A stretch of DNA of 64,000 nucleotides from an uncultured Acidobacteriaceae bacterium. Its GTDB lineage: Bacteria > Acidobacteriota > Terriglobia > Terriglobales > Acidobacteriaceae. A model generated the notes under the pieces. It saw only the letters and a program-made list of their open reading frames with translations, was not told the origin of the DNA and ran no database searches. The stretch's first letter is position 1, and the number at the start of each line of letters is the position of its first letter. This document shows, one piece after another, positions 1,214 through 59,955 of this stretch. Location of the stretch: NCBI GenBank assembly GCA_963763975.1, contig CAVXQR010000016.1, positions 240,442-304,441 of the forward strand. Direction: 5' to 3'. The position numbers and the translations under genes are program-made.

Positions 1214-4200
1214 ATGTCTTCCCCTGTCAGGTTCCGTCTCTACCAACCAATCGTGAAATCCCTGAACCAGGCCTGGACCGTGGCGATGGGAGCCTTGCTG
1301 TTGGCAATGGCGCTGTCCACCATCACTTCCGCCCAGATGGTGATGGACGTGGATCATGAGATGGAGGCTGCCCGAAGGACCAAACAGCCCGCCTACGACA
1401 TCGTCTCGTGCGGGAAGAATGGGCAGCAATCCTTGCCCGCCGGTGATTACAACTCCGACCTGCACGTCGGTCGGGCCGTGCGTAGCCGATGGAACTCTGG
1501 GTGGAGGAATTTATAAGTATCACTGGGTGTTCATCCATAGCGGCGGGACGCTGACCTTCCAGGACAAGCAGCTTGACCTGTTCGCGTCTTCCATTCTGGT
1601 GCTGAATGGCGGCACGCTGGAAGCGGGCGGGCCGAGTGACACGGATGCCATCGGCGCCAATGGCGGGCTGGTAGCCATTCATCTGTGGGGAGCGAAAGAC
1701 GGAGCCGCCATCTACTGTCAGGACCAGGATGGCCAGGAAGATACGCTGTGCGGTATTCCCAGCGAAATCTGGAACAACCCCAAGAACAAGATGGACAAGA
1801 TTTACCCGACCGTACCCTGTGACCGCAACAGCGAGTATCCGACGGGCGATTGTTTCTACCAATATGACCTTCCGGCGGTCAGCACTCTTTATTTTGGGCG
1901 CAAGACTTTGGCCGTCTCCTACGGCGGCACACTGCGGCTGTTCGGCAAGAAAGGCTCAACCTTCGATGGGCTTACCCCAGATCCGGCGAATACCGGTAAG
2001 AGCTGGCAAAGGCTGATCACCAATCTGAAGCCGACCGACACGGAATTTGACGTGGATGGCCAAGTTGATTGGCAGGAAGGCGATCATATTGTGATCACGC
2101 CTACCGACTACCTGCCCGGCCATGCGGAAGAGGCGATCATCGCCAGCGCCATGCCCGACGGCGACCACACCGCCATCACCATCAGCGGCGTCGTGCTCGA
2201 CGACGGAACCGTGCAGCCGGGAGGCTTGCGCTTTCCGCACTACGGCGAGACCTACAAGATTCCGGGCGACGTGCAAACCCGGCTGAAACTCGACCGCGGT
2301 GAAGTTGACACGCGCGCCGCCGTGGCGCTGCTCACTCGCAGTATCTGCGTCATCTCCGAGGGCGACAACGGCCCTGCTGCGCCCCAAACGGGCTGCAATT
2401 CCTCGTTCCCCCCGACTCCCGGAAATTACTTTGGCGGCCAGGTTATCTTCCGCCAGGGATTCAAGCAGGTGGAAGTTCAGGGAGTGCAGTTTCACCAGTT
2501 AGGCCAGGGCGGAACCATTGGCCGGTACGCAGTGCACTTTCATATGGCCCGCAAGGTGCAGCCGGACACCTTCGTCAAGGACTCATCCATCGACGAATCC
2601 ATGACCCGATGGATTACGGTGCACGGTACGCAAGGCTTGTTGCTGGCGCGCAATGTGGGCTGGAAGTCGATCGGCCACGGATTTTATATCGAGGATGGCA
2701 CCGAAACCGACAATAAGATTTACGCCAACATCGGCATTCTGGCTCGTGCCGCAGTGGCCAACGCGCAGAATCCGCGCCGGGTGCCAGGCATCCTCGCCCA
2801 TCCCAATTTGACCGACGACCGCGATCCCTACGCCAGCGATTGGCAACATCCCAGCGTGTTCTGGATCATGAATGGGTGGAACGATTTTGAGTACAACATG
2901 GCGGCCGGAGCCGGCTCCTGCGGCATCTGCTACTGGCTGCCGGCCGGCGCCAACAGCGGACCTTCGCGCTATGAGTATTGGACGGGATACGCCTCACGCC
3001 AGCGTGGATTGCAAGATCAGCTTGGTCTTCGAGACTTCAACTCCGGCACTTCGCCATTGGAAAAATTCGTTGGTAATTCCTGTTCCACCGCCATGTTCTC
3101 GTTCATGGAAATTGGTCAGCTTAACAGCGGCTGTGACGGCTTCGGGCCCACCTCCGACCGGACCGTGGCCGCCATTCCCGGCGCTGGACCCGACATTGCC
3201 GGCCAACCCGACAAGCCGGTTCTGGACTACTATCCCCTGGTCACCGGCCTGCGCGATCCAACCACCTGCAACGACTTGACCAGGGACTGCGGCAGCAACA
3301 CCGACCCAACCAATTTGAAATGCAACGGGACCAACGACATCGACGAAAAGAACTGCGCGACCACGGTCCTGGACCACTACACCACGTCCTTCAACTTCGC
3401 CCAGAAAAATTTCTCCGCCATCTGGCTGCGTCCCTGGTGGAAGGCGGTGGTGGACAGTTCCATCACCGACCAACTGGGACCGGGAGTGACCTTCGTCACC
3501 GGCGGCGGCTATACCCGCTCCGATTCTTCGTTGGGCAATTGGAATGTCGGTCTCCGGGACGTTTATGTCGGGCAGACGCAGCCGACTCCCGACGATCCTG
3601 GAGCGAAATTCTTTGCTTCCGATTTTGGGCCATTTACCCCAAGCGGACTTCCGAAGTGCGATAACGGTGCGATCCCGGGCGGCTACTGCCTTTCCAAGGA
3701 CAACGGCATCAGCATTCCCATCACCAATTTCAACAGCGGCCAGCGCATGTTCAACATCTACGATGGGCCGTCGTTCCAGGACTCCAGCGCCTATCTGAAT
3801 ATCAAGGCGAAAACTTTGCCCGATTGCACCCCTGAGAAGCGTGACCCCTCAACCGGAGTCTGCGATCAGAGCGGGTACATGTATGGACACTCCCAGGGGC
3901 TGCTGCAAAGTCCCGATGGCAAGTCCTGTTACATCCCGAATGCCGCCATCGCATGGAAGCAGGAGAATGGTTTCTACTATCCGCCGGCCTTTCACTCCCG
4001 GAACCTTGCCTTCCGGGATGTGGACATTCGTCACTTTGTGATCGAGCCGCTGTTCAAGCTGAACACCTTTCAGTTGGACGAGAAGGCCACCGCGGCGCGC
4101 TACTGCACCTGGAAACCCGACCTCTTCCAGCCCTTCAATGACATTGACCGGCAAACCGTACTCAACGACAACGACGGCTCGCTGACCGGACTGCTGGCCG

Positions 4201-5458: not shown

Positions 5459-5533
<75 letters not shown>

Positions 5534-8181: not shown

Positions 8182-8188
8182 TGCGGCC

Positions 8189-8240
8189 GTGGATAGTGGA
8201 TAGTGCATAGTGACTGATGGCCAGTGGCCGGTATCCATGG
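8189..8240. repeat. 7-nt tandem array (GTGGATA-type), immediately after the prolyl oligopeptidase stop
   Basis: gtggata gtggata gtgcata gtgactg atggcca gtggccg gtatcca. Confidence 0.75.
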
Positions 8241-9233: not shown

Positions 9234-10442
9234 CTACCGCGGGTGCACCATCTCCTCCAGCCGCGTCAGCCGCTGCTCCAACTCTTCAATCTTCTGCTCC
9301 TGCGTGCCGATGACCTTCGCCTCCGCCTCCGCCCGCTGATACTGCTTCTGCACTTCATTCAACAGCATGGTGCTCAGGTACTGATAGCGAACGCTGTAAG
9401 GCTGGCCGTCGCTGTCGTAGGCCACCAGCTCGGGATAGACCTTCGCTACCTCTTCCGCAATCAGCCCATATTGCAGGGTCCGCTCGCCGTTGCTGTACTG
9501 TGCCTTGTAGAAGAACGTCACCGGTCGCAGTCGCATCAACGCGTCGGTGCTGCCGCCCATGTCTCGCACCTGCTCCTTGTAACGCAGCGAGGAAGCCATG
9601 GTGCCCAATTCGCCATTTGAGTCCACGTACACGGGCAAGGCGTTGTTCAAGACGGTGGCGTGGTACACACCGGCGATGTAAGCCGAGGTCTGATAGCGTC
9701 CGTCGCCAATGCGAATCGTGCCGGTGTCATACGGCGTCCCAGCATGGTTGATGAAAATATTGTTGCTGCCGGTATGGCTGGTCTCTCCCGAACCTGCGCC
9801 GCTGCCGAGATAGGTATTGCCGCTGCCAGTGCCGAGGTACGGGCCGGCATTATTGCCAACCAGAGTATTGTTGCTGGCGATGGTGACCTGGCCGCCGGCG
9901 CCTCCGCCGATCATGACGTTGCCGTTACCGCCTACCGTAAGCCCGGCCTGATAGCCAATGCCGATGTTGTTTTCTCCGCCGGGACTGCGCCATCCCGGCG
10001 AAGCGCCAACGAAAACGTTGAACGCTCCCTGGTTGGTGGTGCCGGCGTCCCAGCCCAGAAAGGTGTTGAAGCTGCCACCCTGCCCGGTATCAATACCTAG
10101 AGCCAGGTTCCCTGGAGCGGTCGCGCTCAATAGGGTCTTTCCGCCAAGGCTGTACGTCGTCGCGGCATTGATGCCGCCGTTGACGTCGAGCGTAGTGGCT
10201 GGCGCCTGGGTGCCAACTCCGATGCTGGATCCGTTCTGGTACATCACGGAACTCAGCAGATAGCTGTTGGTTCGCCAGATCGGAATGTAGTACGGCGTGC
10301 CGTCACCCCCCAGCACCGGGCCTGGCGGAAGGATGGAACCGTTGGGTGTCGCTGTGGCAGGCGCATGTTCAGACGGTTGCTGGGCAAAGCTGATGCAGGC
10401 GAAGGACAAAGCCAGGGCAAGTGCGAAACTGATGCGGCGCAT
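9234..10442 (-). CDS. Secreted Gly-rich repeat protein with C-terminal intramolecular-chaperone (peptidase S74, tail-fibre/endosialidase type) domain
   Basis: Internal start MRRISFALALALSFACISFAQ (signal peptide); Gly/Asn-rich repeats; C-terminal LRPVTFFYK...GLIAEEVAKVYPELV resembles the S74 auto-processing chaperone domain; coiled-coil tail. Confidence 0.6.
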   Translation of the reverse strand: MRRISFALALALSFACISFAQQPSEHAPATATPNGSILPPGPVLGGDGTPYYIPIWRTNSYLLSSVMYQNGSSIGVGTQAPATTLDVNGGINAATTYSLGGKTLLSATAPGNLALGIDTGQGGSFNTFLGWDAGTTNQGAFNVFVGASPGWRSPGGENNIGIGYQAGLTVGGNGNVMIGGGAGGQVTIASNNTLVGNNAGPYLGTGSGNTYLGSGAGSGETSHTGSNNIFINHAGTPYDTGTIRIGDGRYQTSAYIAGVYHATVLNNALPVYVDSNGELGTMASSLRYKEQVRDMGGSTDALMRLRPVTFFYKAQYSNGERTLQYGLIAEEVAKVYPELVAYDSDGQPYSVRYQYLSTMLLNEVQKQYQRAEAEAKVIGTQEQKIEELEQRLTRLEEMVHPR

Positions 10443-13516: not shown

Positions 13517-13597
13517 GTCAGCGACGCTTATCTTGTCAGGGTTGGGGAATCGTCTTAGAATTCGCCACAGCGTTGTGCGTACGTACAGGAGTCATCA

Positions 13598-14005
13598 TTG
13601 ATGAGTTATTCCCGTGTGGCCGGATGCGCTCTGGTCGCCAGTCTGCTGCTGTGTTCCTGCAAAGGCGGCAACCGCAAGCTTGACAACGATACTGCCTCCA
13701 CCCTGCTGCAATCGGCATTGCAGCAGACGCTGCTGGACAGAGGTTTCTCCCCCGACACCCACGTTACCGTGACCAAGGTGGACATCGCGCCTGACGACAA
13801 GAACGCCAGCGGCGACTTCACCTTCACCAACGGCAGCCAGGCGCTTAAGATCGGCGAACGCGCGGTTTTGAATTGCAAGTATTACAGCGGAAAGGCCGCC
13901 TTTAAGCGCGCCGACGACGGCAACTGGATGGCGCTGAGTATGCACGACATCTCCAACAGCGATAACCTTTGCCTGTCATCCATTGATTTCACCACCGGCA
14001 AGTAG
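13598..14005 (+). CDS. Hypothetical lipoprotein
   Basis: Signal peptide ending LLLCSC (lipobox-like); 135 aa; no recognised domain. Confidence 0.4.
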   Translation: MMSYSRVAGCALVASLLLCSCKGGNRKLDNDTASTLLQSALQQTLLDRGFSPDTHVTVTKVDIAPDDKNASGDFTFTNGSQALKIGERAVLNCKYYSGKAAFKRADDGNWMALSMHDISNSDNLCLSSIDFTTGK

Positions 14006-24413: not shown

Positions 24414-24926
24414 GGGTTCGGGCGCAGACATCGGACGCACAGGTTTGCCTGGGTGCAAGCGATAATCGTCCGTCGTAAAAGGGTTTGTCAAGGGCGGCGC
24501 GCATTGCCCGCAAATGAGGAGTGCTTCAACCAGAGGCGAGTGTCGCCTGGCGGGGCGGCGCCTGCGCATTTCCACTCCGCTCAAACGCATACCGGCGCAT
24601 CAGCAGAAAGTAGAGGGCAATGGCTGAAATCACCACCGTGGAAATCAGGCCCACCACCGTACCGAACATGTACTCTCGCGGTGCGCGGAGAGCATGAAGC
24701 GACGCTGAGATCCGCGGCGAGTTTAGAAACCGCAGGTCCCTCGGCTCCGCTTCGCTGCGCTCGGGATGACAAGTCGTAAAGGTGTAGTCGCTGCGCTCGG
24801 GATGACAGGATTTAAAGTTGCGCTGCGCTCGGGATAACAGATCGTTAGGTTGTACCCGCTGCGCTCGAGAGGAAAGTTCGTACAGTGAGCACTCGGGATG
24901 AAGAGGCCTGCAGTGGGTCGCTCGAA

Positions 24927-24957
24927 CTATCCACTATCCACTACCCACTATCCACTG
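24927..24957. repeat. 7-nt array (TATCCAC-type) abutting the ffh stop
   Basis: ctatcca ctatcca ctaccca ctatcca ctgccc. Confidence 0.75.
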
Positions 24958-24959
24958 CC

Positions 24960-26318
24960 CTACATCCCCGGCATTTTCATTCCCGCCATGCGCCGGGCGA
25001 AGCTGGGCTTGCCCATGCTCTTGAACATCTTGCGCATCTGGGCGTACTGGCGCAGCAGGTGGTTCACTTCCTGCACGCTGGTGCCGGAGCCGCGCGCGAT
25101 GCGCTTGCGGCGGCTGCCGTTGATGACCTCGTGATGCTCGCGCTCGTAGGCGGTCATGGAGTTGATGATGGCCTCGACGCGGGTGATCTGCTTCTCGTCC
25201 ACCTTGTCGGCGGCCTGCTGCATGTTGGCGAAGGGGCCGATCTTGGGCATCATGCCCATGATGCATTGCAGCGAGCCCAGCTTCTTCACCTGGCGCAGCT
25301 GATCGCGGAAGTCTTCCAGCGAGAAGCCGTCGCCGCTGAGCGCCTTGCGCGCGAACTCTTCCGACTTTTTCTTGTCGAGCTTGGCTTCGGCTTTCTCGAT
25401 GAGCGAAAGAATGTCGCCCATGCCGAGGATGCGGCCGACGATGCGGTCGGGATGGAAGGGCTCGAGGGCGTCGTACTTTTCGCCGATGCCGATGAACTTG
25501 ATGGGCTGGCCGGTGACGTTGCGGATGGAGAGCGCCGCGCCGCCGCGGGCATCGCCGTCCATCTTGGTGAGCACCACGCCGGTGAGGGTGAGCTTGTCGT
25601 GGAATTCGTCGGCGGAGTTGACGGCGTCCTGGCCGGTCATGGAGTCGGCGACGAAGAGAATCTCCTGCGGATTCAGCAGCTTCTTCAGCGACTGCATCTC
25701 GTCCATCAACTGCTCGTCAATGTGCAGGCGGCCGGCGGTGTCAACGATGAGCACGTCGCAGCCGTTGTTGATGGCCTCGCGCCGCGCTTCTTTCGCCAGC
25801 CGCTCGACCGTGGCGGTGTTGGACTCGCTCACCGTGCCTTCGTAGAGCTGGGCCTTGATGGCCGCGGCGACAACCTTCAACTGCTCGCGCGCGGCCGGGC
25901 GATAGACGTCCACCGAAACCAGCATGGGACGATGGCCGCCCTTCTTGAGCCAGTGCGCCAGCTTGCCCGAGGTGGTGGTTTTGCCGGAACCCTGCAGGCC
26001 GGCCATCAGCACGACGGTAGGCGGCTGCGAGGCGAACTTGAGCTTGGCCGTGTCTTTGCCGAGCAAGTCGATCAGTTCGTCGCGAACGATCTTGACCACC
26101 TGTTCGGCGGGCGAGAGCGCGGTCATCACTTCCTGCCCAACGGCCTTCTCGCGAATGTGGTCGATCAGTTCCTTGACCACCTTGAAGTTGACGTCGGCTT
26201 CCAGCAGCGCCATGCGGATTTCGCGCAGCGCTTCGCCGATGTTCTCTTCGGTCAGCGTGCCCTGTCCGCGAAGGTTCTTGAAGGCGCGCTGCAGTTTGTC
26301 TGTAAGGTTCTCAAACAT
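24960..26318 (-). CDS. ffh: Signal recognition particle protein Ffh
   Basis: N, G (GLQGSGKTTT, DTAGR) and M domains conserved; 452 aa. Confidence 0.95.
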   Translation of the reverse strand: MFENLTDKLQRAFKNLRGQGTLTEENIGEALREIRMALLEADVNFKVVKELIDHIREKAVGQEVMTALSPAEQVVKIVRDELIDLLGKDTAKLKFASQPPTVVLMAGLQGSGKTTTSGKLAHWLKKGGHRPMLVSVDVYRPAAREQLKVVAAAIKAQLYEGTVSESNTATVERLAKEARREAINNGCDVLIVDTAGRLHIDEQLMDEMQSLKKLLNPQEILFVADSMTGQDAVNSADEFHDKLTLTGVVLTKMDGDARGGAALSIRNVTGQPIKFIGIGEKYDALEPFHPDRIVGRILGMGDILSLIEKAEAKLDKKKSEEFARKALSGDGFSLEDFRDQLRQVKKLGSLQCIMGMMPKIGPFANMQQAADKVDEKQITRVEAIINSMTAYEREHHEVINGSRRKRIARGSGTSVQEVNHLLRQYAQMRKMFKSMGKPSFARRMAGMKMPGM

Positions 26319-27543: not shown

Positions 27544-28416
27544 ATGCTGACGATGGCCTCTGCCGTTCAAATCGCCTCGCTGCGCCGCGTTGCCGGACAT
27601 AACCTGCTGGCCACCGCGGGCGCGGTGATGGTGGTGCTGCTGGTGATCTGCGCAGTCTTCGCGCCCTGGCTGGCGCCGCAGGACCCGGCGCGCATTGACC
27701 TGCCGGCGCGGCTGCTTGGCCCGTCGGCCTCGCATTGGATGGGCACCGACGAACTCGGCCGCGACGTTCTGTCGCGCATCATTTTTGGCGCGCGCATCTC
27801 CATGCTGGTGGGCGGATGCGTGGTAGCTGCGTCGCTGACGCTGGGGCTGATCTTCGGCTCTATCGCCGGCTATTACGGCGGGCTCACCGACCGCCTGCTG
27901 AACGTGGTGGTGATGAACGCGTTCATGTCGTTCCCGGGAATCCTGCTGGCCATCGCCTTCGTCGCGTTTCTGGGGCCGGGCATTTTCAATCTGGTATTCG
28001 CGCTGTCGCTGGGCGGATGGGTGGGCTATGCGCGACTGGTGCGCGCCCAGGTGCTGGCGGTGCGCGAGCGCGAATTCGTGGAAGCCGCGCGGGCCTTGGG
28101 CGCTAGCGACCTGCGCATCGTGACCAGGCACATCCTGCCTAACATTATTCAGCCGGTTATTGTGCAGGCGGCCATCGGCATGGCGGGCGCGATTCTGGCC
28201 GAAGCCACCATGAGCTTCCTCGGGTTGGGCGTGCCGCCGCCGGCCGCAAGCTGGGGCACCATGCTGAACGATGGCCGCGCGCATCTGTTCGACTCGCCGC
28301 ACCTGGTGGTGTTTCCTGCGATTGCGGTGATGCTGGCGGTGCTCTCGTTCAACTTCATCGGCGATGGGCTGAGGGATTATCTCGATCCGCGGTCGAGGAT
28401 TGAGGTGGGAATATAG
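27544..28416 (+). CDS. ABC transporter permease (DppC/OppC-type)
   Basis: 6 TM helices; binding-protein-dependent transporter EAA-like region (EAARALGASDLRIVTRHILPN). Confidence 0.85.
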   Translation: MLTMASAVQIASLRRVAGHNLLATAGAVMVVLLVICAVFAPWLAPQDPARIDLPARLLGPSASHWMGTDELGRDVLSRIIFGARISMLVGGCVVAASLTLGLIFGSIAGYYGGLTDRLLNVVVMNAFMSFPGILLAIAFVAFLGPGIFNLVFALSLGGWVGYARLVRAQVLAVREREFVEAARALGASDLRIVTRHILPNIIQPVIVQAAIGMAGAILAEATMSFLGLGVPPPAASWGTMLNDGRAHLFDSPHLVVFPAIAVMLAVLSFNFIGDGLRDYLDPRSRIEVGI

Positions 28417-28453
28417 ACGGTTGTCAGTTGTCCGTTGTCGGTTGGTCAGTTCC
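28417..28453. repeat. 7-nt array (GTTGTCN-type) between convergent permease and vapC stops
   Basis: ggttgtc agttgtc cgttgtc ggttggt cagttcc. Confidence 0.7.
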
Positions 28454-29295: not shown

Positions 29296-29832
29296 ATGAC
29301 CAATGAGACTGCAATTCTCGGGGGCGGATGTTTCTGGTGTGTCGAGGCCGCGCTCGGCCAGTTGCAAGGCGTCGAGTCGGTGGTTTCCGGCTACATGGGC
29401 GGACGCACCGCCAATCCCACCTATCAGCAAGTGTGCTCGGGAAGCAGCGGGCACGTCGAGGTGGCGAAGATCACCTTCGACCCCGCGGTCATCAGCTTCA
29501 ACGATCTGCTACACGTGTTCTTCTCCATGCACGATCCGACCACGCTCAATCGCCAGGGCAACGACGTCGGCGAGCAGTATCGTTCGGTCATCTTCTACCA
29601 AGGTGAAGAGCAACGGCGCACGGCCGAAGCGGTCATTCGCGAATTGACGGAGGAGAAGGCCTTCGACAAGCCGATCGTCACCGCCATCGAGCCGGCGACT
29701 ACTTTTTATCCCGCCGAGGACTATCACCAGAATTATCTCGCCAACAATCCCATGCAGCCCTACTGCATGTTCGTGGTCACGCCCAAGGTGCAGAAGATCC
29801 GCGAGAAGTACGCCAAGCGGGTGAAGGCGTAG
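29296..29832 (+). CDS. msrA: Peptide methionine sulfoxide reductase MsrA
   Basis: AILGGGCFWCVEA active-site motif; start at MTNETAILGGG. Confidence 0.9.
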   Translation: MTNETAILGGGCFWCVEAALGQLQGVESVVSGYMGGRTANPTYQQVCSGSSGHVEVAKITFDPAVISFNDLLHVFFSMHDPTTLNRQGNDVGEQYRSVIFYQGEEQRRTAEAVIRELTEEKAFDKPIVTAIEPATTFYPAEDYHQNYLANNPMQPYCMFVVTPKVQKIREKYAKRVKA

Positions 29833-29980
29833 CTGTCAGCTGTCGGTTGTCAGTTGTCAGTTGTCCGTTGTCGGTTGTCAAGCCCCAATTCTTGACCTTG
29901 CAAGTGCTGCCCATCCCCAGGGCCGTTGGCTAAAAGCTAAGAGCTAAGAGCTAAGAGCTGACAACTGACGGCTGACGGCC
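29833..29980. repeat. Two 7-nt arrays of opposite polarity (TTGTCAG x7 and CTAAGAG/CTGACNN x7) with potential to form a long stem-loop, after the msrA stop
   Basis: ctgtcag ctgtcgg ttgtcag ttgtcag ttgtccg ttgtcgg ttgtcaa ...(spacer with ttgacc)... ctaaaag ctaagag ctaagag ctaagag ctgacaa ctgacgg ctgacgg. Confidence 0.75.
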
Positions 29981-31154: not shown

Positions 31155-31310
31155 GGACTAGGGGCCAGGGACTAGGGGCTAGAGACTCGGGACTGGGACT
31201 CGCAGTCAGCTGTCAGCCGTCAGCCGCCCCGAGCTGAAGGCTGAGAGCTGAGAGCTAATAGCTAAGAGCTAATAGCTAAGAGCTAATGGCTGATGGCTAG
31301 TTGCTAATTG
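31155..31310. repeat. ~22-unit 7-nt array filling the NfeD-flotillin intercistronic spacer (consensus drifts GGACTAG, then AGTCAGC, then AGCTAAG)
   Basis: ggactag gggccag ggactag gggctag agactcg ggactgg gactcgc agtcagc tgtcagc cgtcagc cgccccg agctgaa ggctgag agctgag agctaat agctaag agctaat agctaag agctaat ggctgat ggctagt tgctaat. Confidence 0.8.
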
Positions 31311-32805: not shown

Positions 32806-32954
32806 ATGGCTTTGAAAGGGCACGGCTTCAGCCGTGCCGTTAGCGGCCCAGGAAGACTGGGCTTTAGCCCCTGCGGATTTGGAAAGGGCCTACGGCAAAT
32901 GCCCCGCCCTAGCCAAAACCAGGCTAGAACGGGGCACCCAGGTGGTTTTCTCGC

Positions 32955-33015
32955 TGGCGAAGAGCGAATGGCGAATAGCGAAATCAAGCTGACGGCTGAC
33001 AGCCGAGAGCTAAAA
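32955..33015. repeat. 7-nt array (GCGAATN merging into CTGACNG and AGCTAA) between flotillin and pspA, next to a partial family-B element (32901-32948)
   Basis: tggcgaa gagcgaa tggcgaa tagcgaa atcaagc tgacggc tgacagc cgagagc taaaagg. Confidence 0.7.
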
Positions 33016-33685: not shown

Positions 33686-33688
33686 GGC

Positions 33689-33733
33689 GGCAATTAGCAA
33701 TTAGCCGTTAGCCGTCAGTAATTAGTACTTAAC
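33689..33733. repeat. 7-nt array (GCAATTA/GCCGTYA) after the pspA stop
   Basis: gcaatta gcaatta gccgtta gccgtca gtaatta gtactta. Confidence 0.7.
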
Positions 33734-40087: not shown

Positions 40088-42235
40088 TTATTTTCCTTCG
40101 GTCACGATCTCGCTGAAATCGGCGATGGTGGAAAATTCGTTCAACAGATCGCGCAACAGCGCCAGGCGATTGGAGCGCACGCGTTCGTCGTCCACCATCA
40201 CCATCACTTTGTCGAAGAACAGGTCCACCGGCTGGCGCAACCGGCTGATTTCGACCAGCGCCGCGGCGTAGTTCCCTGCCGCGCGGAAATCACGCACCCG
40301 CCCGGCGATCACCGGGATTTCCGCCGCTAGTTTCTTCTCCGGCTCTTCTGTCAGAGCGGCGGCGTCCAGATGCTCGGCCACGTTCTTCTTCGTTTCCGCC
40401 GCCTGGCGCAGGATGTTCTTGGTCCGCTTGAACGCCACCGCGATGGACGCGAAATCCTCCGAGCCACGCACTTCGCTCACGGCTTCGGCGCGCGCGATAG
40501 CATCCACCACATCGTCGCTGCCGGCGGCCAGCACCGCGTTCACTACGTCATAGGCAAAGCCGCGTGCGTCGCGCAGATAAAACTCCAGGCGCTCGCGCAT
40601 GAAGTTCGCGACTGCCTCGTCGAAATTGATCTTGCGATTGAAGCGCCGCTCCGCTTCCGAGCCGTTGTACTCGGCGCGCGCATCGGCGAACAGCTTCGAG
40701 ATGGGCAGCGGCAGCTTATGCTCGGCGATGATCTTCACAATGCCGTTGGCGGCGCGGCGCAGCGCGAAGGGATCCTTCGAGCCCGTCGGCTGCAGGCCCA
40801 GCGCGAACATGCCGGCAATGCTGTCGGCCTTGTCGGCAATGGCCAGCACGCCGCCTTCGATTGAGCGCGGCACGCTGTCGTCCATGGACTCGGGCTTGTA
40901 ATGATCGTAGATGGCGTCGGCGATGGCCTCGTGGTTCGCCTCCGGCATGATCGGGTCCAGCTCCTGCACCCGCGCGTACAGGCCGCCGACGATGCCCTGC
41001 AGTTCGGTGAACTCCTTCACCAGCTCGGTGGTCAGGTCGGTCTTCGACAGCAGGCCGGCCTTGAAAACGATGCCCGGCCGCACCGTGCCGCCGGCGCTGC
41101 GAATGGTTTCGGCGAGCAGGCTGCCCAGCCTTTGCACGCGGATGGTTTTGTCAAAGTAGCTTCCAAGATCCTTCTGGAAGGTCACCGACTTCAGCATGTC
41201 CACGCGCGAGCGCAGCGGAATTTTCTGGTCGGTCTGCCAGAAGAAGCGCGCATCGTTGAAGCGGGCGCGCAGCACGCGCTCGTTGCCGTGGCGGATGAGG
41301 CCTTCGGGATCGCCCGAAGTGTTCAGCACCGCCAGGAAGTGCGGCAGCAGTTTGCCGCCGCCATCTTCCAGAGCGAAATATTTCTGATGGTCGCGCATCA
41401 CCGTGACCAGCACTTCGTCGGCGAGCGAAAGAAATTCGGCATCGAAGCTGCCCAGCACTACCGAGGGCATTTCGGTGAGGTTGATCACGGTATCGAGCAG
41501 CGGCTTGTCGTCGCGCCAACGTGCGCCGGGGATGGTGCGGGCCGCGGCATCGAGCGCCTTGCGGATGCGCTGCTCGCGCTCTGCCGCGCTGGCCACCACC
41601 GAGCCCTTCGCCAGTGTCGCCGTGTAATCGGCAGGACGGCGGATTTCCAGCGCGCCCGACGAGAGAATGCGATGTCCCTGGGTGGTGTGACCGGCGCGAA
41701 TGCCGGCGAATTCCACGTCCACCACGCGGTCGTCGAGCAGCGAGACCATCCAGCGCACCGGGCGCACGAAGCGCTCGGCGGACTTACCGCGCCAGTACAT
41801 GTTCTTCGCCCAGTAGATGCCGGCGATTTCCTTGGGCAGCGCTTCGGCCAGAATCTCCGACGCCGGGCGTCCCTTCTTCTCCACCGTGGCCGCCAGATAT
41901 TCGCCTTTGGGCGTAGTCACCTTTTCCAGCGACGCAACCGGCACGTTCACTTTGCGAGCGAAAGCTTCGGCTGCCGGAGTCGGCGCTCCATCTTTGTAGG
42001 CGACCTTGAGCGACGGGCCGGTCACCTGCTCGCGAACGTCGGGCTGCGCGTTGCTGACGCCGCTGGCCACCACAGCCAAGCGCCGCGGTGTCGAGAACGA
42101 CTCCAGCGTGGGAGCGTCGGACAGGCGCTCGCGCTGCAGAAGTTCGCCAATGCGGCGCGCCAGTTCGTCGCGCGCGCTGTCAATCATACGGGCGGGAATT
42201 TCTTCGGTACCGATTTCGAGTAGGAAGTCAGGCAT
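40088..42235 (-). CDS. glyS: Glycine--tRNA ligase beta subunit
   Basis: 715 aa, MPDFLLEIGTEEIPARMI N-terminus and conserved GlyS domains. Confidence 0.95.
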   Translation of the reverse strand: MPDFLLEIGTEEIPARMIDSARDELARRIGELLQRERLSDAPTLESFSTPRRLAVVASGVSNAQPDVREQVTGPSLKVAYKDGAPTPAAEAFARKVNVPVASLEKVTTPKGEYLAATVEKKGRPASEILAEALPKEIAGIYWAKNMYWRGKSAERFVRPVRWMVSLLDDRVVDVEFAGIRAGHTTQGHRILSSGALEIRRPADYTATLAKGSVVASAAEREQRIRKALDAAARTIPGARWRDDKPLLDTVINLTEMPSVVLGSFDAEFLSLADEVLVTVMRDHQKYFALEDGGGKLLPHFLAVLNTSGDPEGLIRHGNERVLRARFNDARFFWQTDQKIPLRSRVDMLKSVTFQKDLGSYFDKTIRVQRLGSLLAETIRSAGGTVRPGIVFKAGLLSKTDLTTELVKEFTELQGIVGGLYARVQELDPIMPEANHEAIADAIYDHYKPESMDDSVPRSIEGGVLAIADKADSIAGMFALGLQPTGSKDPFALRRAANGIVKIIAEHKLPLPISKLFADARAEYNGSEAERRFNRKINFDEAVANFMRERLEFYLRDARGFAYDVVNAVLAAGSDDVVDAIARAEAVSEVRGSEDFASIAVAFKRTKNILRQAAETKKNVAEHLDAAALTEEPEKKLAAEIPVIAGRVRDFRAAGNYAAALVEISRLRQPVDLFFDKVMVMVDDERVRSNRLALLRDLLNEFSTIADFSEIVTEGK

Positions 42236-42236
42236 A

Positions 42237-42307
42237 AAGAGCTATTAGCAATTAGCTGTTAGCTATTAGCAAGCAAGCTGCCAGCCGTCAGCTATCAGCT
42301 ATCAAAC
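42237..42307. repeat. 7-nt array (AGCTATT/CAGCTAT) in the glyQ-glyS intercistronic spacer; an inverted family-B partial copy follows at 42372-42420
   Basis: agctatt agcaatt agctgtt agctatt agcaagc aagctgc cagccgt cagctat cagctat. Confidence 0.7.
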
Positions 42308-42438
42308 ACTATTGCGCAACCTTCATTTTCAACGACGGACAGAAGCAGCGATGTGATTCGAGTCACAGTCACTTCGAACATCCGACTTGGGTGCCCCGTT
42401 CTGGCCCGCCTTTGGCCAGGGCGGGGCTTTCGTTCTGT

Positions 42439-43515
42439 CTATGCTTTGCTGGCTGCCAACTGCTCGGCTTTGGGCTCGGGCTGTTTCGGCGTCGAACTCT
42501 CCGCCTGCGCCTTCTGCTGGTCCACGTACGCCTTGGCAACGCCGACGGCCAGCGCACGAATACGTGCGATCACGCCGACGCGCTCGGTCACGCTGATGGC
42601 GCCGCGCGCGTCCAGAATGTTGAACAGGTGCGAGCACTTCAGGCATAGGTCGAAAGCGCCCAGCACCGGAAAGCGGCGGATCGCCGCGAGACGCTCTTCG
42701 CTATTCGCCATTCGCTGTTCGCCAGAGGATCGCTCTTCGCCGTTCGCTGTTCGCTTTTCGCCAGAATCCGTCGAAGGCGCAGGCGACGCCAGCGCGCGAT
42801 ATTCCTCCAGCAGCGCCTGGCATTCTGCTTCATAGAGCTCCAAATGTTTCCAGGCCTTGGCCACGTCGGCCATCTCGAAGTTGTACACCGAGAATTGCAG
42901 CTCATCCTGCAAGCGAATCTCGCCGTACTTCACCGCACGGCCGTCGGGGCCGACCACCCAGGTGATGTCGTAGATCGAGTCCACATCCTGCAAAAATGCG
43001 GCGATGCGCTCCAGCCCATAGGTCAGCTCAGCCGAAATCGGATCGAGATCAATGCCGCCGCACTGCTGGAAGTAGGTGAACTGCGTGATCTCCAGGCCGT
43101 CGAGCATCACCTGCCAGCCGATGCCCCACGCGCCCAGCGTCGGCGATTCCCAGTTGTCTTCCTCGAACTTGATGTCATGCTGGCGCAGGTCAATGCCGAT
43201 GGCGGCCAGCGATTGCAGGTACAGTTCCTGCACATTCTCCGGCGGCGGTTTCAGGATGACCTGGTACTGCATGTGTTTGAACAGCCGGTTAGGATTCTCG
43301 CCATAGCGGCCGTCGGCCGGACGCCGCGAAGGCTGCACGTAGCCCACGCGATAGGGCCGCGGGCCCAGCACGCGCAGGAAAGTTTCCGGCGCCATGGTTC
43401 CGGCGCCCACTTCGACATCGTACGGCTGTTGCAGGACGCAGCCATTCTCAGCCCAGAAAGTTTGCAGGCGAAGCACCAACTGCTGGAAGGTCAACGGATT
43501 TTGCGAGGATGGCAA
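42439..43515 (-). CDS. glyQ: Glycine--tRNA ligase alpha subunit with 26-aa in-frame low-complexity insertion
   Basis: [33 protein letters not shown]...; insertion [25 protein letters not shown] encoded by 7-mer repeats at 42692-42769. Confidence 0.9.
42692..42769. repeat. Duplicated 39-nt block of 7-nt repeats (NNTTCGC x4 plus linker, twice) inside the glyQ coding sequence
   Basis: cgctcttcgctattcgccattcgctgttcgccagagga / tcgctcttcgccgttcgctgttcgcttttcgccagaatcc; shares 20 nt with the intergenic array at 32955. Confidence 0.75.
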
Positions 43516-47208: not shown

Positions 47209-47258
47209 AAAGCTGAATGCCAAAAGCTAAGAGCTAAAAGCTAAGAGCTATCAGCTTC
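47209..47258. repeat. 7-nt array (AAGCTAA/GAGCTAA) abutting the rho stop
   Basis: aagctga atgccaa aagctaa gagctaa aagctaa gagctat cagcttc. Confidence 0.7.
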
Positions 47259-50933: not shown

Positions 50934-51096
50934 GCGGGAGCCGCACGCCTACCACAGTGGTTACAAGTGTACAGATTCCGCGTGGACTCGATGTGACCGC
51001 TCTCACCAGGCCGCGTGACAAGGAAGATGAAGCCGTGCCGTTTAGAAACCCGGTGCGCGCGTTCGGCGGGCACCCGCGCCCAAGCCGACGTTGCGC

Positions 51097-51170
51097 CCAT
51101 GTCGATGCCGTGCTCATGCCGATGCCGTGCTCATGCCGATGTTGCGCCGATGCCGAGGCCGTGCCGATGC
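51097..51170 (+). repeat. Tandem ~17-nt repeats (atgccgtgctcatgccg x ~4) in the long comM upstream intergenic region
   Basis: gtcgatgccgtgctcatgccgatgccgtgctcatgccgatgttgcgccgatgccgaggccgtgccgatgcg. Confidence 0.6.
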
Positions 51171-51539
51171 GAGCGCCGGAGGCGCGACTTAGTTTAGCCC
51201 AGCGTGCAGCGCCCTCTTTTGGCGCGGAACGCTGGGTACGCTCGCCCTAGGAATTTCGGAGTGCCGTAGGCACGGTGCCTTTCACTCGATCTACCGGAGG
51301 CGATAAATTCACCATTTCGCGGGTAACCGGACTGCGTGGGAATGGTCCGGGTGCAGTCCGCAAAGCGGACGGCATATCTTAGCCCGCCGTTTCAACGGCG
51401 GGTGAGCGCCATTAAGATTTCGAGTCCCCCGGGGACGGCAGGAGTCGCGGCAGCGACGCCACGCCTTTCGCGGCGCAAACCCGGCCTGGATGGGGCACCC
51501 TCGGAACGGTAGCCTGAGCCACCCACCGATGGCATCGAT

Positions 51540-52782: not shown

Positions 52783-52992
52783 GTTCCTTTCGGATGTGTG
52801 GGAGGCTACAAGTCTCAAACGGTTCCGTCCCAACGTGCCCGTGACCAAGAAACAAAGGCCCCGCCCTAGCCAAAGGATGGCTAGAACGGGGCACCCACGT
52901 TTTCAGATCATCATGGCCAGAACGGGGCACCCTGGTTCACAGGAGAACTCCGGCATATCTTTGCGGATTCCTCTGTGTCTCTGTGGTTCAAA
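52783..52992 (+). repeat. Composite dispersed element (family B: tttcggatgtgtgggag...aaggccccgccctagccaaa..ggctagaacggggcaccc...ttcctctgtgtctctgtggttcaaa), copy with internal duplication
   Basis: Near-identical copy at 55463-55611; partial copies at 32901-32948 and 42372-42420 (inverted). Confidence 0.7.
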
Positions 52993-55462: not shown

Positions 55463-55611
55463 TGTGTGGGAGACGGCAACGACCTGCAATGCAAGGCCCC
55501 GCCCTGGCCGAATGATGGCGAGAACGGGGCACCCATGTTCAGAGGGAGAAATCCGACATAGCTTTCCGATTCCTCTGTGTCTCTGTGTCTCTGTGGTTCA
55601 AAGATCTTCCG
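55463..55611 (+). repeat. Composite dispersed element family B, copy 2
   Basis: tttcggatgtgtgggag...aaggccccgccctggccgaatgatggcgagaacggggcaccc...ttcctctgtgtctctgtgtctctgtggttcaaag. Confidence 0.7.
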
Positions 55612-56937: not shown

Positions 56938-56973
56938 AAGTTGTCGGTTGTCAGTTGTCGGTTGTCGGTAAGA
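56938..56973. repeat. 7-nt array (GTTGTCG-type) upstream of the ECF sigma operon
   Basis: aagttgt cggttgt cagttgt cggttgt cggtaag. Confidence 0.7.
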
Positions 56974-59671: not shown

Positions 59672-59897
59672 TACGGCCTCCAGAATATGAATCGTCGAAA
59701 TATGAGTGCGGCGAGAACGCTCCAGCGCGGCAGGTTAGCAAAAGGGATAGAGGTGCGACGTGAAAGTACCGTGAAATCGGAAATCCCCAGGAACACACCG
59801 CTGCCGGGCCGGAGTCGGCTCCGGTATTGAGCATGTGCTTCTTATTGCCGCAGCAATAGTGCGGGGGTCACAGGAGGGTGTGATGGAGGACACCGGA

Positions 59898-59929
59898 GTA
59901 GTGGATAGTGGGTAGTGGATAGTGGATAG
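59898..59929. repeat. 7-nt array (ATAGTGG-type) upstream of the four-helix-bundle gene
   Basis: gtagtgg atagtgg gtagtgg atagtgg ataga. Confidence 0.7.
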
Positions 59930-59955
59930 AAAACGGGTGCAGAGGACCGAGACTT

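Follow-up and report, generated by a model that had tools for sequence, protein, structure and literature searches.

A heptanucleotide repeat array in frame in glyQ of a Terriglobales bacterium, and its putative maintenance as nucleic acid

The glyQ locus and its repeat modules

The 64-kb stretch of DNA analysed here (hereafter the window) contains a single glyQ gene, an essential gene encoding the alpha, catalytic subunit of glycine--tRNA ligase (GlyRS). Its product is 100% identical to a database protein (P0001) carrying PF02091 (PF02091.21), whose match spans the catalytic core and the C-terminal helices, and it matched the solved alpha subunit 5f5w_A (E 6e-105) on both sides of the insert described below in a phmmer search of the PDB, confirming the original assignment as glyQ. 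The ORF of its downstream partner glyS, for the beta subunit, starts 203 nt downstream of glyQ, and PF02092 is present at the glyS-orthologous position of a related locus (L203).

The phmmer match to the PDB splits into two parts (query residues 8-238 and 284/285-332/335), between which the solved chains hold only residues 241-243 (5f5w) or 239-240 (1j5w). Based on this sequence alignment to solved chains, a lineage-specific insert replaces a three-residue turn between helices 1 and 2 of the C-terminal three-helix bundle of GlyQ. This supports the predicted location between the catalytic core and the last helices, but the whole insert, at about 45 residues relative to the solved structures, is larger than the 26 residues first proposed. 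An AF2 model built from a 36-sequence alignment of close homologues was poor as a whole (mean pLDDT 52, pTM 0.41) and therefore unsuited to fold searches or surface mapping; we used it only for the local low confidence of residues 247-279 (pLDDT <50), with residues 244-270 lacking secondary structure. The insert peptide is hydrophilic and probably disordered.

Within the insert, two tandem 39-nt modules lie in the glyQ reading frame, each composed of TCTG, four GCGAANN heptamers and GAGCG; each has four perfect GCGAA cores plus a fifth, degenerate core. Read on the sense strand, both modules together run GAT TCT / GGCGAAA AGCGAAC AGCGAAC GGCGAAG AGCGATC CTCT / GGCGAAC AGCGAAT GGCGAAT AGCGAAG AGCGTCT, and they are identical to each other at 31/39 nt. 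Together with the arrays called by Tandem Repeats Finder (TRF; Table 1), this confirms that a 7-nt repeat block is duplicated in frame inside glyQ. Because three heptamers make 21 nt, the encoded peptide has a 7-residue period, [S/G]-E-x-R-x-A-[N/K]. The modules consist of directly repeated heptamers with little U and weak structure, without palindromic or MITE architecture, and the predicted RNA of the array is less structured than shuffled sequences (z +1.48).

Table 1 Features of the glyQ locus and related repeats in the window
Feature	Position	Strand	Remarks
REP-like hairpin	32902..32939	+	CCCCGCCC-stem-loop-stem-AACGGGGCACCC; then CACCCA, 15-nt spacer, GCGAANN array
Intergenic GCGAANN array	32956..32982	+	GGCGAAG AGCGAAT GGCGAAT AGCGAA; 43 nt upstream of a pspA-like gene
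20-mer, intergenic copy	32963-32982	+	AGCGAATGGCGAATAGCGAA
glyS	40088..42235	minus	ORF; glycine--tRNA ligase beta subunit, 715 aa
GCTGANN/GCTAANN heptamer array	42240..42304	minus	ends 4 nt before the glyS ATG
REP-like hairpin	42389..42426	minus	12 nt downstream of the glyQ stop codon; MFE -21.4 kcal/mol
glyQ	42439..43515	minus	ORF; glycine--tRNA ligase alpha subunit, 358 aa, TTG start
Lineage-specific insert	42667..42801	minus	residues 239-283; phmmer vs PDB
Module 2	42688..42726	minus	TCTG GCGAACA GCGAATG GCGAATA GCGAAGA GCGTCTC; encodes 13 residues
Period-7 array	42692-42722		4.4 copies; TRF
20-mer, copy in module 2	42697-42716	minus	exact match to the intergenic copy
Module 1	42727..42765	minus	TCTG GCGAAAA GCGAACA GCGAACG GCGAAGA GCGATCC; encodes 13 residues; TRF period 7
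Period-7 array	42730-42761		4.6 copies; TRF
REP-like hairpin	52859-52896	+	
REP-like hairpin	about 52921	+	
REP-like hairpin	55497-55534	+	

Heptamer arrays and hairpins outside glyQ

Period-7 arrays are frequent in the window, with 14 arrays compared to 0-1 for periods 5, 6 and 8-11, and in 531 kb of related loci, with 50 arrays compared to 2-6 for other periods. The units in the window are GCGAANN, GCTAANN, CCACTAT and GTTGTCN. While 12 of the 14 window arrays are located at gene boundaries, the two in glyQ are the only ones deep inside a gene. Like the window, most genomes of the clade have an array at this place 5' of glyS, and at another related locus (L019) a heptamer array lies 8 nt before an ATG.

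The glyQ modules and the intergenic array upstream of the pspA-like gene agree in core, orientation and an exact 20-mer, for which shuffled sequences gave an expectation of 0. Given two GCGAANN arrays, however, simulation put the chance of such a match at about 0.03-0.06, and the 20-mer therefore reflects membership in the same repeat family, not direct copying. Thus, the predicted identity of a 20-nt core between the two arrays is exact, whereas its use as proof of recent copying from position 32963 was downgraded. A metagenome sample contained 122 further free-standing arrays of at least four GCGAANN units, none of them in glyQ; TCTG precedes ten of them, compared to about 0.5 expected, and, like the glyQ modules, several finish in GCGAA followed by GAGCG. 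Both these arrays and the one at 32956-32982 place the element family outside genes. Comparing 83 free-standing arrays with downstream long ORFs revealed no orientation bias (44 sense, 45 antisense), but this crude test carries no information, since spurious ORFs are plentiful at a GC content of 60%.

An origin of the glyQ array by chance or assembly artefact is hardly conceivable: the period-7 excess and the 20-mer exceed shuffled expectations by far, several projects contributed the more than 100 independent assemblies that contain the insert, and we found no evidence in favour of either.

In the window and the 531 kb of related loci, an in-frame array occurs in glyQ only. Elsewhere, a similar composite insert splits ThiC (PF01964) on a metagenome contig (L131), and a possible in-frame array is present in UvrA on another (L150); each case comes from a single contig of unknown taxon. 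A phmmer search of the 32-aa insert against 1.84 billion representatives returned three matches, all translations of other heptamer arrays and hence uninformative on spread, although one (P0122) is possibly a genuine protein into which a 7-aa repeat is inserted. A word-indexed search with the consensus repeat peptide gave no scored matches, and a literature search on heptamer repeats in Acidobacteria found nothing relevant.

Besides heptamers, the locus features REP-like hairpins, whose structures were taken from individual folds, as RNAalifold on 11 copies (using a MAFFT alignment, which is not structure-aware) recovered the outer stem only. No Rfam family covers the arrays or hairpins. In the window, the hairpins are intergenic and glyQ itself has none. 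In two related loci (L008 and L014), a hairpin, 15 nt and four heptamers lie in frame in glyQ. The in-frame glyQ hairpins of other Terriglobales have the same ends as the intergenic copies of the window and different, self-complementary inner stems. The equal 15-nt spacing between hairpin and array in the window and in L008/L014 could be a coincidence; by eye, the spacers match at 5/15 positions.

Conservation of the array among relatives

Alignment of GlyQ orthologues, the check suggested in the original prediction, revealed an insert at this site in all 120 closest protein clusters, 115 of which carry at least one recognisable module (0-3 modules per orthologue by motif count, up to four by eye). 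Repeat-bearing inserts were likewise found across about 21 species-level Terriglobales/Korobacteraceae genomes. Many species-level relatives have in common both the two-module layout and the module-specific residues (K vs E at position 3, K vs N at position 7), which argues against the strain-specific or recent duplication initially considered. In contrast, the proposal of repeat-driven protein change holds, as GlyQ length varies with zero to four modules among orthologues. Module 2 corresponds to the module found in nearly all orthologues of the clade (columns 70-81 of the alignment). Conservation is stronger in this last module than in the additional ones, and its E, R, A, E and R residues are kept in nearly all 120 clusters. 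Extra modules have decayed at core positions, both synonymous and non-synonymous, in unit 1 of the closest relative (P0002/L203) and in units of P0039/L201, and constraint on the glyQ modules is accordingly not uniform.

More distant Terriglobales either lack the peptide or have, in the same loop, inserts of unrelated sequence or a peptide derived from the hairpin. Across 74 Terriglobales species genomes, the ECQ...FD segment containing the loop varies from 30 to 86 residues. Judging from these alignments, the loop between the first two C-terminal GlyQ helices tolerates almost any sequence across Terriglobales. One module would have entered this loop in an ancestor of the Korobacteraceae-like clade, and module number may then have changed by unequal recombination between modules, leaving two in the window genome; because modules are 39-45 nt long, such changes stay in frame.

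A 7-nt unit, not being a multiple of three, also raises the possibility of a contingency locus, in which 7-nt slippage toggles glyQ between on and off states or between isoforms, or in which the duplication is recent and strain-specific. Three assemblies (L015, L053 and L021) indeed show frame problems or an in-frame TAG in the region, but these defective copies stem from single metagenome bins labelled 'MFD', assumed to be error-prone long-read assemblies. Moreover, instead of a long perfect, slippage-prone tract, each glyQ tract comprises 4-5 heptamers that differ at two of seven positions (positions 6-7; TRF match 83-84%), and a 7-nt slip in this non-dispensable gene, present once in the window, would remove the conserved C-terminal helices. 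Together with the layout common to many species, this makes the phase variation envisaged earlier very improbable.

To separate nucleotide-level from codon-level conservation, we compared 25 units from 21 genomes, which are phylogenetically related, so that counts are not independent. Codons within the units are strongly conserved (GGC 100%, CGA 92%, GCG 96%, AGC 100%, GAA 88-96%), whereas heptamer positions 6-7 are only 44-52% conserved, whatever their codon position. GCGAA cores are kept at 7-nt spacing in all three codon phases. The rest of glyQ in these genomes makes much less use of such codons at invariant residues, with CGA for 7.5% of Arg, GCG for 37% of Ala, GAA for 38% of Glu and AGC for 20% of Ser (Fisher P 5e-9 to 3e-20 for array vs the rest of glyQ, with non-independent counts from related genomes). 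Nucleotide diversity (pi) was 0.07 at core third positions compared to 0.375-0.468 at synonymous sites of the flanks, and 0.416 at the variable heptamer sites; the terminal Arg codon, which lies immediately beyond the array, reached 0.738 at its third position. A codon table drawn from the alignment without a motif filter gave the same picture for both modules, and the sister genomes L007/L009 and L010/L017 differ mainly at variable heptamer positions. Hence, conservation follows the 7-nt period and not the codon period. An overlapping antisense gene was rejected as the cause of the synonymous constraint: open antisense frames vary in length between 21 and 510 codons, with none above 69 in L004, and no conserved antisense ORF was found across the array.

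Since the motif is conserved in all three codon phases and through codons that are rare elsewhere in glyQ, we infer that the GCGAA repeat is maintained as nucleic acid, with the peptide acting as a passive, tolerated spacer. An ancient conserved linker had been named as the observation that would overturn the original prediction; close relatives do carry the segment, but its repeat structure is kept at the DNA level, beyond coding need. Selection on the protein cannot yield the codon choice of the array, because the codons follow the heptamer in three phases and against the gene's own usage. This weighs heavily against the idea that selection favours the charged peptide (SGEERKANSEER) as a functional arm of GlyRS that might, for instance, touch tRNA or the beta subunit, with the DNA repeat as a relic of its origin. 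The conserved residues and stronger conservation of the last module would fit such an arm, and charged helical tRNA-binding appendices are known in eukaryotic aminoacyl-tRNA synthetases. Given the codon pattern, the absence or replacement of the peptide in more distant Terriglobales and, as weak evidence, the low-confidence region without secondary structure in the AF2 model, we consider it improbable.

Alternatively, the array could be selfish or mutationally regenerated DNA without any function, its modules being refreshed by slippage, unequal recombination or gene conversion from the many GCGAANN arrays of the genome, which would make the cores look conserved, with old copies decaying neutrally and the enzyme tolerating them. 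The decay of extra modules, the variation in module number, the 20-mer common to glyQ and an array 10 kb away, the other repeat elements collected by the same GlyQ loop and the split ThiC are all in line with such turnover. However, conversion from outside would erase the module-specific residues that many species have in common; adjacent heptamers differ at positions 6-7, where diversity is neutral-like while the cores are conserved; the sister genomes differ mainly at these variable positions; and the 20-mer is not exceptional given the repeat family. We therefore regard turnover without function as rather unlikely.

On balance, we favour with moderate confidence that the segment represents an in-frame member of a heptamer family found genome-wide, sits in a permissive GlyQ loop and is maintained as nucleic acid, in our preferred reading by purifying selection. 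The element consists of a GCGAA core plus two variable bases, arranged in modules of the form (C/T)TCTG-(GCGAANN)4-GAGCG, and selection would act on a property that also preserves heptamer arrays in the 5' leaders of the clade. Candidates for this property are a purine tract with few U residues and little structure, or a platform for a putative factor reading 5-nt cores every 7 nt. More tentatively, and with considerable doubt, the array might be dual-use, coding for an enzyme spacer and at the same time serving as a cis-acting element under purifying selection, as part of a Terriglobales-wide system of heptad arrays that would be read by a dedicated factor or would shape mRNA leaders or translation.

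Significance and comparison with known repeat systems

Some bacterial phyla are rich in tandem heptanucleotide arrays, for which, to our knowledge, no role has been firmly established. When such an array sits in a conserved essential gene, it offers what intergenic copies cannot give, namely the codon frame as an internal neutral expectation. The motif beats this expectation about five-fold in diversity, which argues that the arrays are maintained as nucleic acid; if the dual-use reading were true, the glyQ copy would amount to a natural experiment in which constraint on the nucleotides can be told apart from constraint on the protein. As far as we know, the best-documented case of intergenic repeats colonising housekeeping genes in frame has so far been Rickettsia. 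Our finding suggests that free-living Acidobacteriota of soil show it as well, with a permissive loop as its focus. In practice, the insert yields length-variable GlyQ proteins, and annotation may call genes with stops or frameshifts inside the glyQ repeat pseudogenes.

Among known systems, cyanobacterial short tandemly repeated repetitive sequences (STRR), reportedly described by Mazel and colleagues in 1990, are tandem heptanucleotides present in many copies per genome and in several families, mostly outside genes. The window, with its tandem 7-nt arrays mostly at gene boundaries, shows the same layout. In contrast to STRR, it belongs to another phylum (Terriglobales/Korobacteraceae by the names of its relatives) and has another consensus, its heptamers combine a 5-nt fixed core with two free positions, and one heptamer family lies in frame in an essential gene. 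STRR are named as a target for fingerprinting in PMC5088731.

Rickettsia palindromic elements (RPEs; Ogata et al. 2000 Science 290:347; 2002 Genome Res 12:808), as outlined in PMC10969869, are an intergenic repeat family that is also found in frame in unrelated conserved genes, and the glyQ array is likewise in frame. RPEs add a peptide at a site compatible with fold and function that is inherited by related species, as is the case here. However, RPEs are palindromic, MITE-like elements of about 150 bp in an obligate intracellular alpha-proteobacterium, whereas the glyQ element is a non-palindromic tandem 7-nt array in a free-living soil acidobacterium. Furthermore, one loop of one gene here holds two kinds of element in different lineages, and motif conservation was measured at synonymous sites.

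Contingency loci of Haemophilus and Neisseria (e.g. PMC2651432) resemble the array in having an in-frame short tandem repeat whose unit is not a multiple of three, but their tracts are long and perfect and lie in surface or restriction genes that are dispensable, with coexisting frameshifted alleles. The glyQ repeats, in contrast, are imperfect and short, and remain stably in frame across species in an essential gene. DNA uptake sequences (USS/DUS) are single 9-12-mers in coding regions that competent bacteria retain through biased uptake and recombination. Like the glyQ array, they are motifs maintained in genes beyond protein need where the peptide is tolerated, but nothing ties the heptamer arrays to transformation. 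Lineage-specific inserts of aminoacyl-tRNA synthetases are likewise idiosyncratic additions to a surface loop of a conserved enzyme, between the catalytic core and a helical domain; while these are usually treated as protein modules, the glyQ insert demonstrably consists of a genomic DNA repeat, which its codons follow. Taken together, RPEs and the cyanobacterial heptanucleotide repeats are the closest analogues of the glyQ array.

An in-frame heptamer array in the GlyQ loop

The match between GlyQ of the window and the sequences of solved alpha subunits (E 6e-105) stops at residue 238 and restarts at 284/285, and because the Aquifex and Thermotoga chains have 2-3 residues in place of 239-283, the comparison points to a lineage-specific insert of about 45 residues, which takes the place of the turn joining the first helix of the C-terminal bundle to the second. 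In a published plastid GlyRS structure, this three-helix bundle is described as lying over the catalytic cradle and adding to subunit contacts (PMC10164559). An AlphaFold2 model of GlyQ, poor overall (mean pLDDT 52), shows one helix at 218-243 and another at 283-303, separated by a segment of low confidence that lacks structure.

Within the insert lie two 39-nt modules, each consisting of TCTG, four perfect GCGAA cores with two variable bases after each (heptamer GCGAANN) and GAGCG, so that the sense strand reads GAT TCT / GGCGAAA AGCGAAC AGCGAAC GGCGAAG AGCGATC CTCT / GGCGAAC AGCGAAT GGCGAAT AGCGAAG AGCGTCT. Since three heptamers span 21 nt, the encoded peptide has a period of seven residues, [S/G]-E-x-R-x-A-[N/K]. 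The in-frame 7-nt repeat of the original prediction was confirmed, because Tandem Repeats Finder detects both tracts, an exact 20-mer is shared with the intergenic array (32963-32982), and the window holds 14 period-7 arrays versus 0-1 for periods 5, 6 and 8-11.

All 120 of the closest protein clusters (80-88% identity) carry an insert at the same site; those with names belong to Terriglobales, Candidatus Korobacteraceae or Candidatus Angelobacter. Recognisable SGE[EK]RxA[NK]SEER modules were found in 115 clusters (one in 75, two in 38, three in 2), and the database protein P0039 has four by eye. In 74 species-representative genomes, the ECQ-to-FD segment ranges from 30 to 86 residues. Only the closest clade (about 24 genomes, identity 80% or more) has the heptamer-bearing insert; in more distant Terriglobales the loop holds a short linker or inserts unrelated to it. 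Across species, first and last modules differ at position 3 (K27/E8 versus E22/K4) and position 7 (K27/N7 versus N20/K13). With these module-specific residues recurring between species, the two-module state is old and not strain-specific. Across the clade the array is shared and varies in length.

Features of the window
Feature	Position	Strand	Remark
tRNA gene	5462-5533	minus	Rfam
Period-7 array	8185-8216
36-nt tandem repeat	24752-24882		3.8 copies; contains GCGCTCGGGATGACA
Period-7 array	24923-24960
Period-7 array	28416-28445
Period-7 array	29830-29881
Period-7 array	29926-29970
Period-7 array	31201-31298
REP-like hairpin	32902-32939	plus
Period-7 array	33688-33719
Period-7 array	42240-42304	minus	GCTAANN/GCTGANN; ends 4 nt before glyS ATG
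Palindrome TGTGACTCGAATCACA	42352-42367	minus	glyQ-glyS spacer
REP-like hairpin	42389-42426	minus
glyQ ORF	42439-43515	minus	358-aa GlyQ; identical to database protein with PF02091
Module 2 (last)	42688-42726	minus	31/39 identical to module 1
Module 1 (first)	42727-42765	minus
Period-7 array	47216-47256
17/34-nt tandem repeat	51074-51170		4.5 copies; GCCCATGCCGATGCCGT
Acido-Lenti-1 RNA	51355-51402	minus	Rfam, 43.3 bits vs gathering score 37
REP-like hairpin	52859-52896	plus
REP-like hairpin	~52895-52933	plus
REP-like hairpin	55497-55534	plus
Period-7 array	56938-56971
Period-7 array	59896-59933
Period-7 array	60356-60405

Codon use and nucleotide conservation of the modules

Codon use was tabulated for 25 modules from 21 genomes, chosen only by a loose protein pattern, and compared with invariant residues outside the modules, in glyQ of those genomes. 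Modules used GGC (Gly) and AGC (Ser) in 100%, GCG (Ala) in 96%, CGA (Arg) in 92% and GAA (Glu) in 88-96% of cases, whereas in the rest of glyQ AGC made up 20% of Ser, GCG 37% of Ala, CGA 7.5% of Arg and GAA 38% of Glu codons (Fisher P 5e-9 to 3e-20, on counts from related genomes that are not independent). At heptamer positions 6 and 7, which fall on codon position 1, 2 or 3, the most common base reached 44-52%, and the Arg codon that follows the final core was split between A (40%), G (24%), T (20%) and C (16%). Alignment-column analysis without a motif filter gave the same bias in both modules. Nucleotide diversity (pi), taken from the last module of each genome, was 0.07 at third and 0.064 at first and second codon positions of the core, versus 0.416 at the variable heptamer positions, 0.738 at the third position of the terminal Arg codon and 0.375-0.468 at synonymous sites in the flanks. 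A search across the array for a conserved antisense ORF able to impose the codon bias found none. Conservation thus has a period of 7, not 3, and the GCGAA core is conserved beyond coding needs. Because of this codon bias, the low diversity at core third positions and the lack of such an ORF, we infer that the motif is maintained at the nucleic-acid level. Exactly those residues that the core dictates are conserved in the peptide: E, R, A, E and R.

Constraint is strongest on the last module, because extra modules decay: in P0002/L203, the closest relative at 88% identity, silent and replacement changes have removed most cores of the first module, and P0039/L201 carries several degraded modules. 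The same decay would fit turnover or gene conversion as the force maintaining the motif, but conversion is at odds with the module-specific residues common to several species and with variable positions that are saturated, yet differ by single changes between sister genomes.

Period-7 arrays and hairpin elements beyond glyQ

All 12 period-7 arrays of the window outside glyQ lie at gene boundaries; the array families are GCTAANN/GCTGANN, CCACTAT/TAGTGGA, GTTGTCN and GCGAANN. GCGAANN and GCTAANN are one base apart, with a stop codon in the GCTAANN core and none in the GCGAANN core. Some adjoining arrays are mutually complementary (e.g. GTCAGCN x3 then NGCTGAN, 31201-31260), and such neighbours could pair. 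The RNA of the glyQ array is U-poor and folds more weakly than shuffles (z +1.48). With both loci belonging to the GCGAANN arrays, the probability of sharing the 20-mer by chance is about 0.03-0.06; the match marks family membership and not a recent copy. A metagenome scan for four consecutive GCGAA cores returned 120 contigs, none with glyQ. TCTG precedes 10 of 122 metagenome arrays versus about 0.5 expected (CTCTG in 8 of those 10), and several of the 122 end GCGAA/GAGCG; TCTG start and GAGCG end are the glyQ module boundaries. A literature search found no published description of heptamer arrays in Acidobacteria.

Arrays often stand immediately 5' of start codons, as at a related locus (L019, 8 nt before an ATG), on metagenome contigs ahead of aspartokinase, ndk and an ABC ATPase, and at glyS of the window, which starts 203 nt downstream of glyQ. 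Among the glyQ-glyS spacers (L001-L022, L042, L203), most clade genomes have a GCTAANN-type array at the same place, followed by pyrimidine-rich GCT(T/C)CTTT without an evident Shine-Dalgarno sequence, a pattern that suggests a conserved leader element. The TGTGACTCGAATCACA palindrome, kept in many clade genomes (L001, L002, L008, L014, L020, L042 and L203; L004, L011 and L013 have variants), could be an operator or small RNA hairpin; the Rfam scan of the window gave no match to it, the Acido-Lenti-1 RNA and one tRNA gene being the sole matches. The GCGCTCGGGATGACA motif also occurs, as GGGATGACAA / TGTCATCCTGAGCGAAGCGAAGGATC, in spacers of L002, L006 and L012 and on metagenome contigs, and is another dispersed repeat family.

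The five REP-like hairpins of the window have the layout CCCCGCCC-stem-AAAnnnn-stem'-AACGGGGCACCC, with conserved ends and variable, self-complementary inner stems. One lies 12 nt 3' of the glyQ stop and another 5' of the array at 32956, with a 15-nt spacer from CACCCA to the array. Eight other Terriglobales genomes (L008, L014, L031, L032, L035, L039, L060, L072) carry in-frame copies in the glyQ loop, encoding peptides of the type SPKNGETRTGHP or SPKTGERMGHP; their ends are those of the window hairpins, and their different stems are internally complementary. In L008 and L014 the hairpin is followed by 15 nt and four GCGAANN heptamers, matching the intergenic arrangement at 32902-32982, with spacers that lack similarity. 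The glyQ loop is a hotspot where repeat elements collect.

ThiC is a second conserved enzyme with these elements: on metagenome contig L131 (Ga0190265_10001159, 13550-13800), PF01964 is found in two stretches split in frame by ~80 aa that hold a GCGAATNN array together with its inverted complement, an array of TTCGC, as well as a GHP motif. Contig L150 (Ga0209542_10013136, ~10090-10115, reverse strand), from a lower-GC organism, has a perfect (GCGAAAA)4 that is read in frame within the linker of a UvrA-like protein (…VEKSEKRKAKSEKQQ…), identified as UvrA by reading the sequence; for its C-terminal half, Pfam gave only generic ABC/AAA matches. The database protein P0122 (512 aa), radical-SAM/HemN-like as judged by eye, contains a long insert of 7-aa period at residues ~225-320 (VSGEERLA CGENWLV SGEERFV …), the mark of a heptanucleotide array translated within another enzyme.

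Phase variation, origin and known systems

Phase variation, also proposed originally, is disfavoured: the tracts are short and imperfect, glyQ is an essential gene, and a 7-nt slip would lose the conserved helices. Frame defects occur in the array region of three loci, each from a single metagenome bin; L021 has an in-frame TAG within the array (~3790-3825, GGA GAA TAG CGA ATA GCG), and in L015 and L053 the array is accompanied by paired frame shifts or by a stop, the flanks remaining in frame. These may be assembly errors or real defects. A module would have entered the glyQ loop once, the number of modules being altered by unequal recombination; the peptide would serve as a passive spacer, and the motif may be retained either for a function at the nucleic-acid level, connected with the leader arrays, or through drive-like turnover.

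In repeat type, the nearest parallel to the glyQ array is the cyanobacterial heptanucleotide STRR. The nearest published parallel is the Rickettsia palindromic elements (RPE), whose in-frame insertions affect many genes (PMC10969869). In contrast to both, the glyQ array is a non-palindromic tandem in a free-living acidobacterium, for which synonymous-site conservation has been measured. The glyQ repeat is real and of more interest than a simple duplication.
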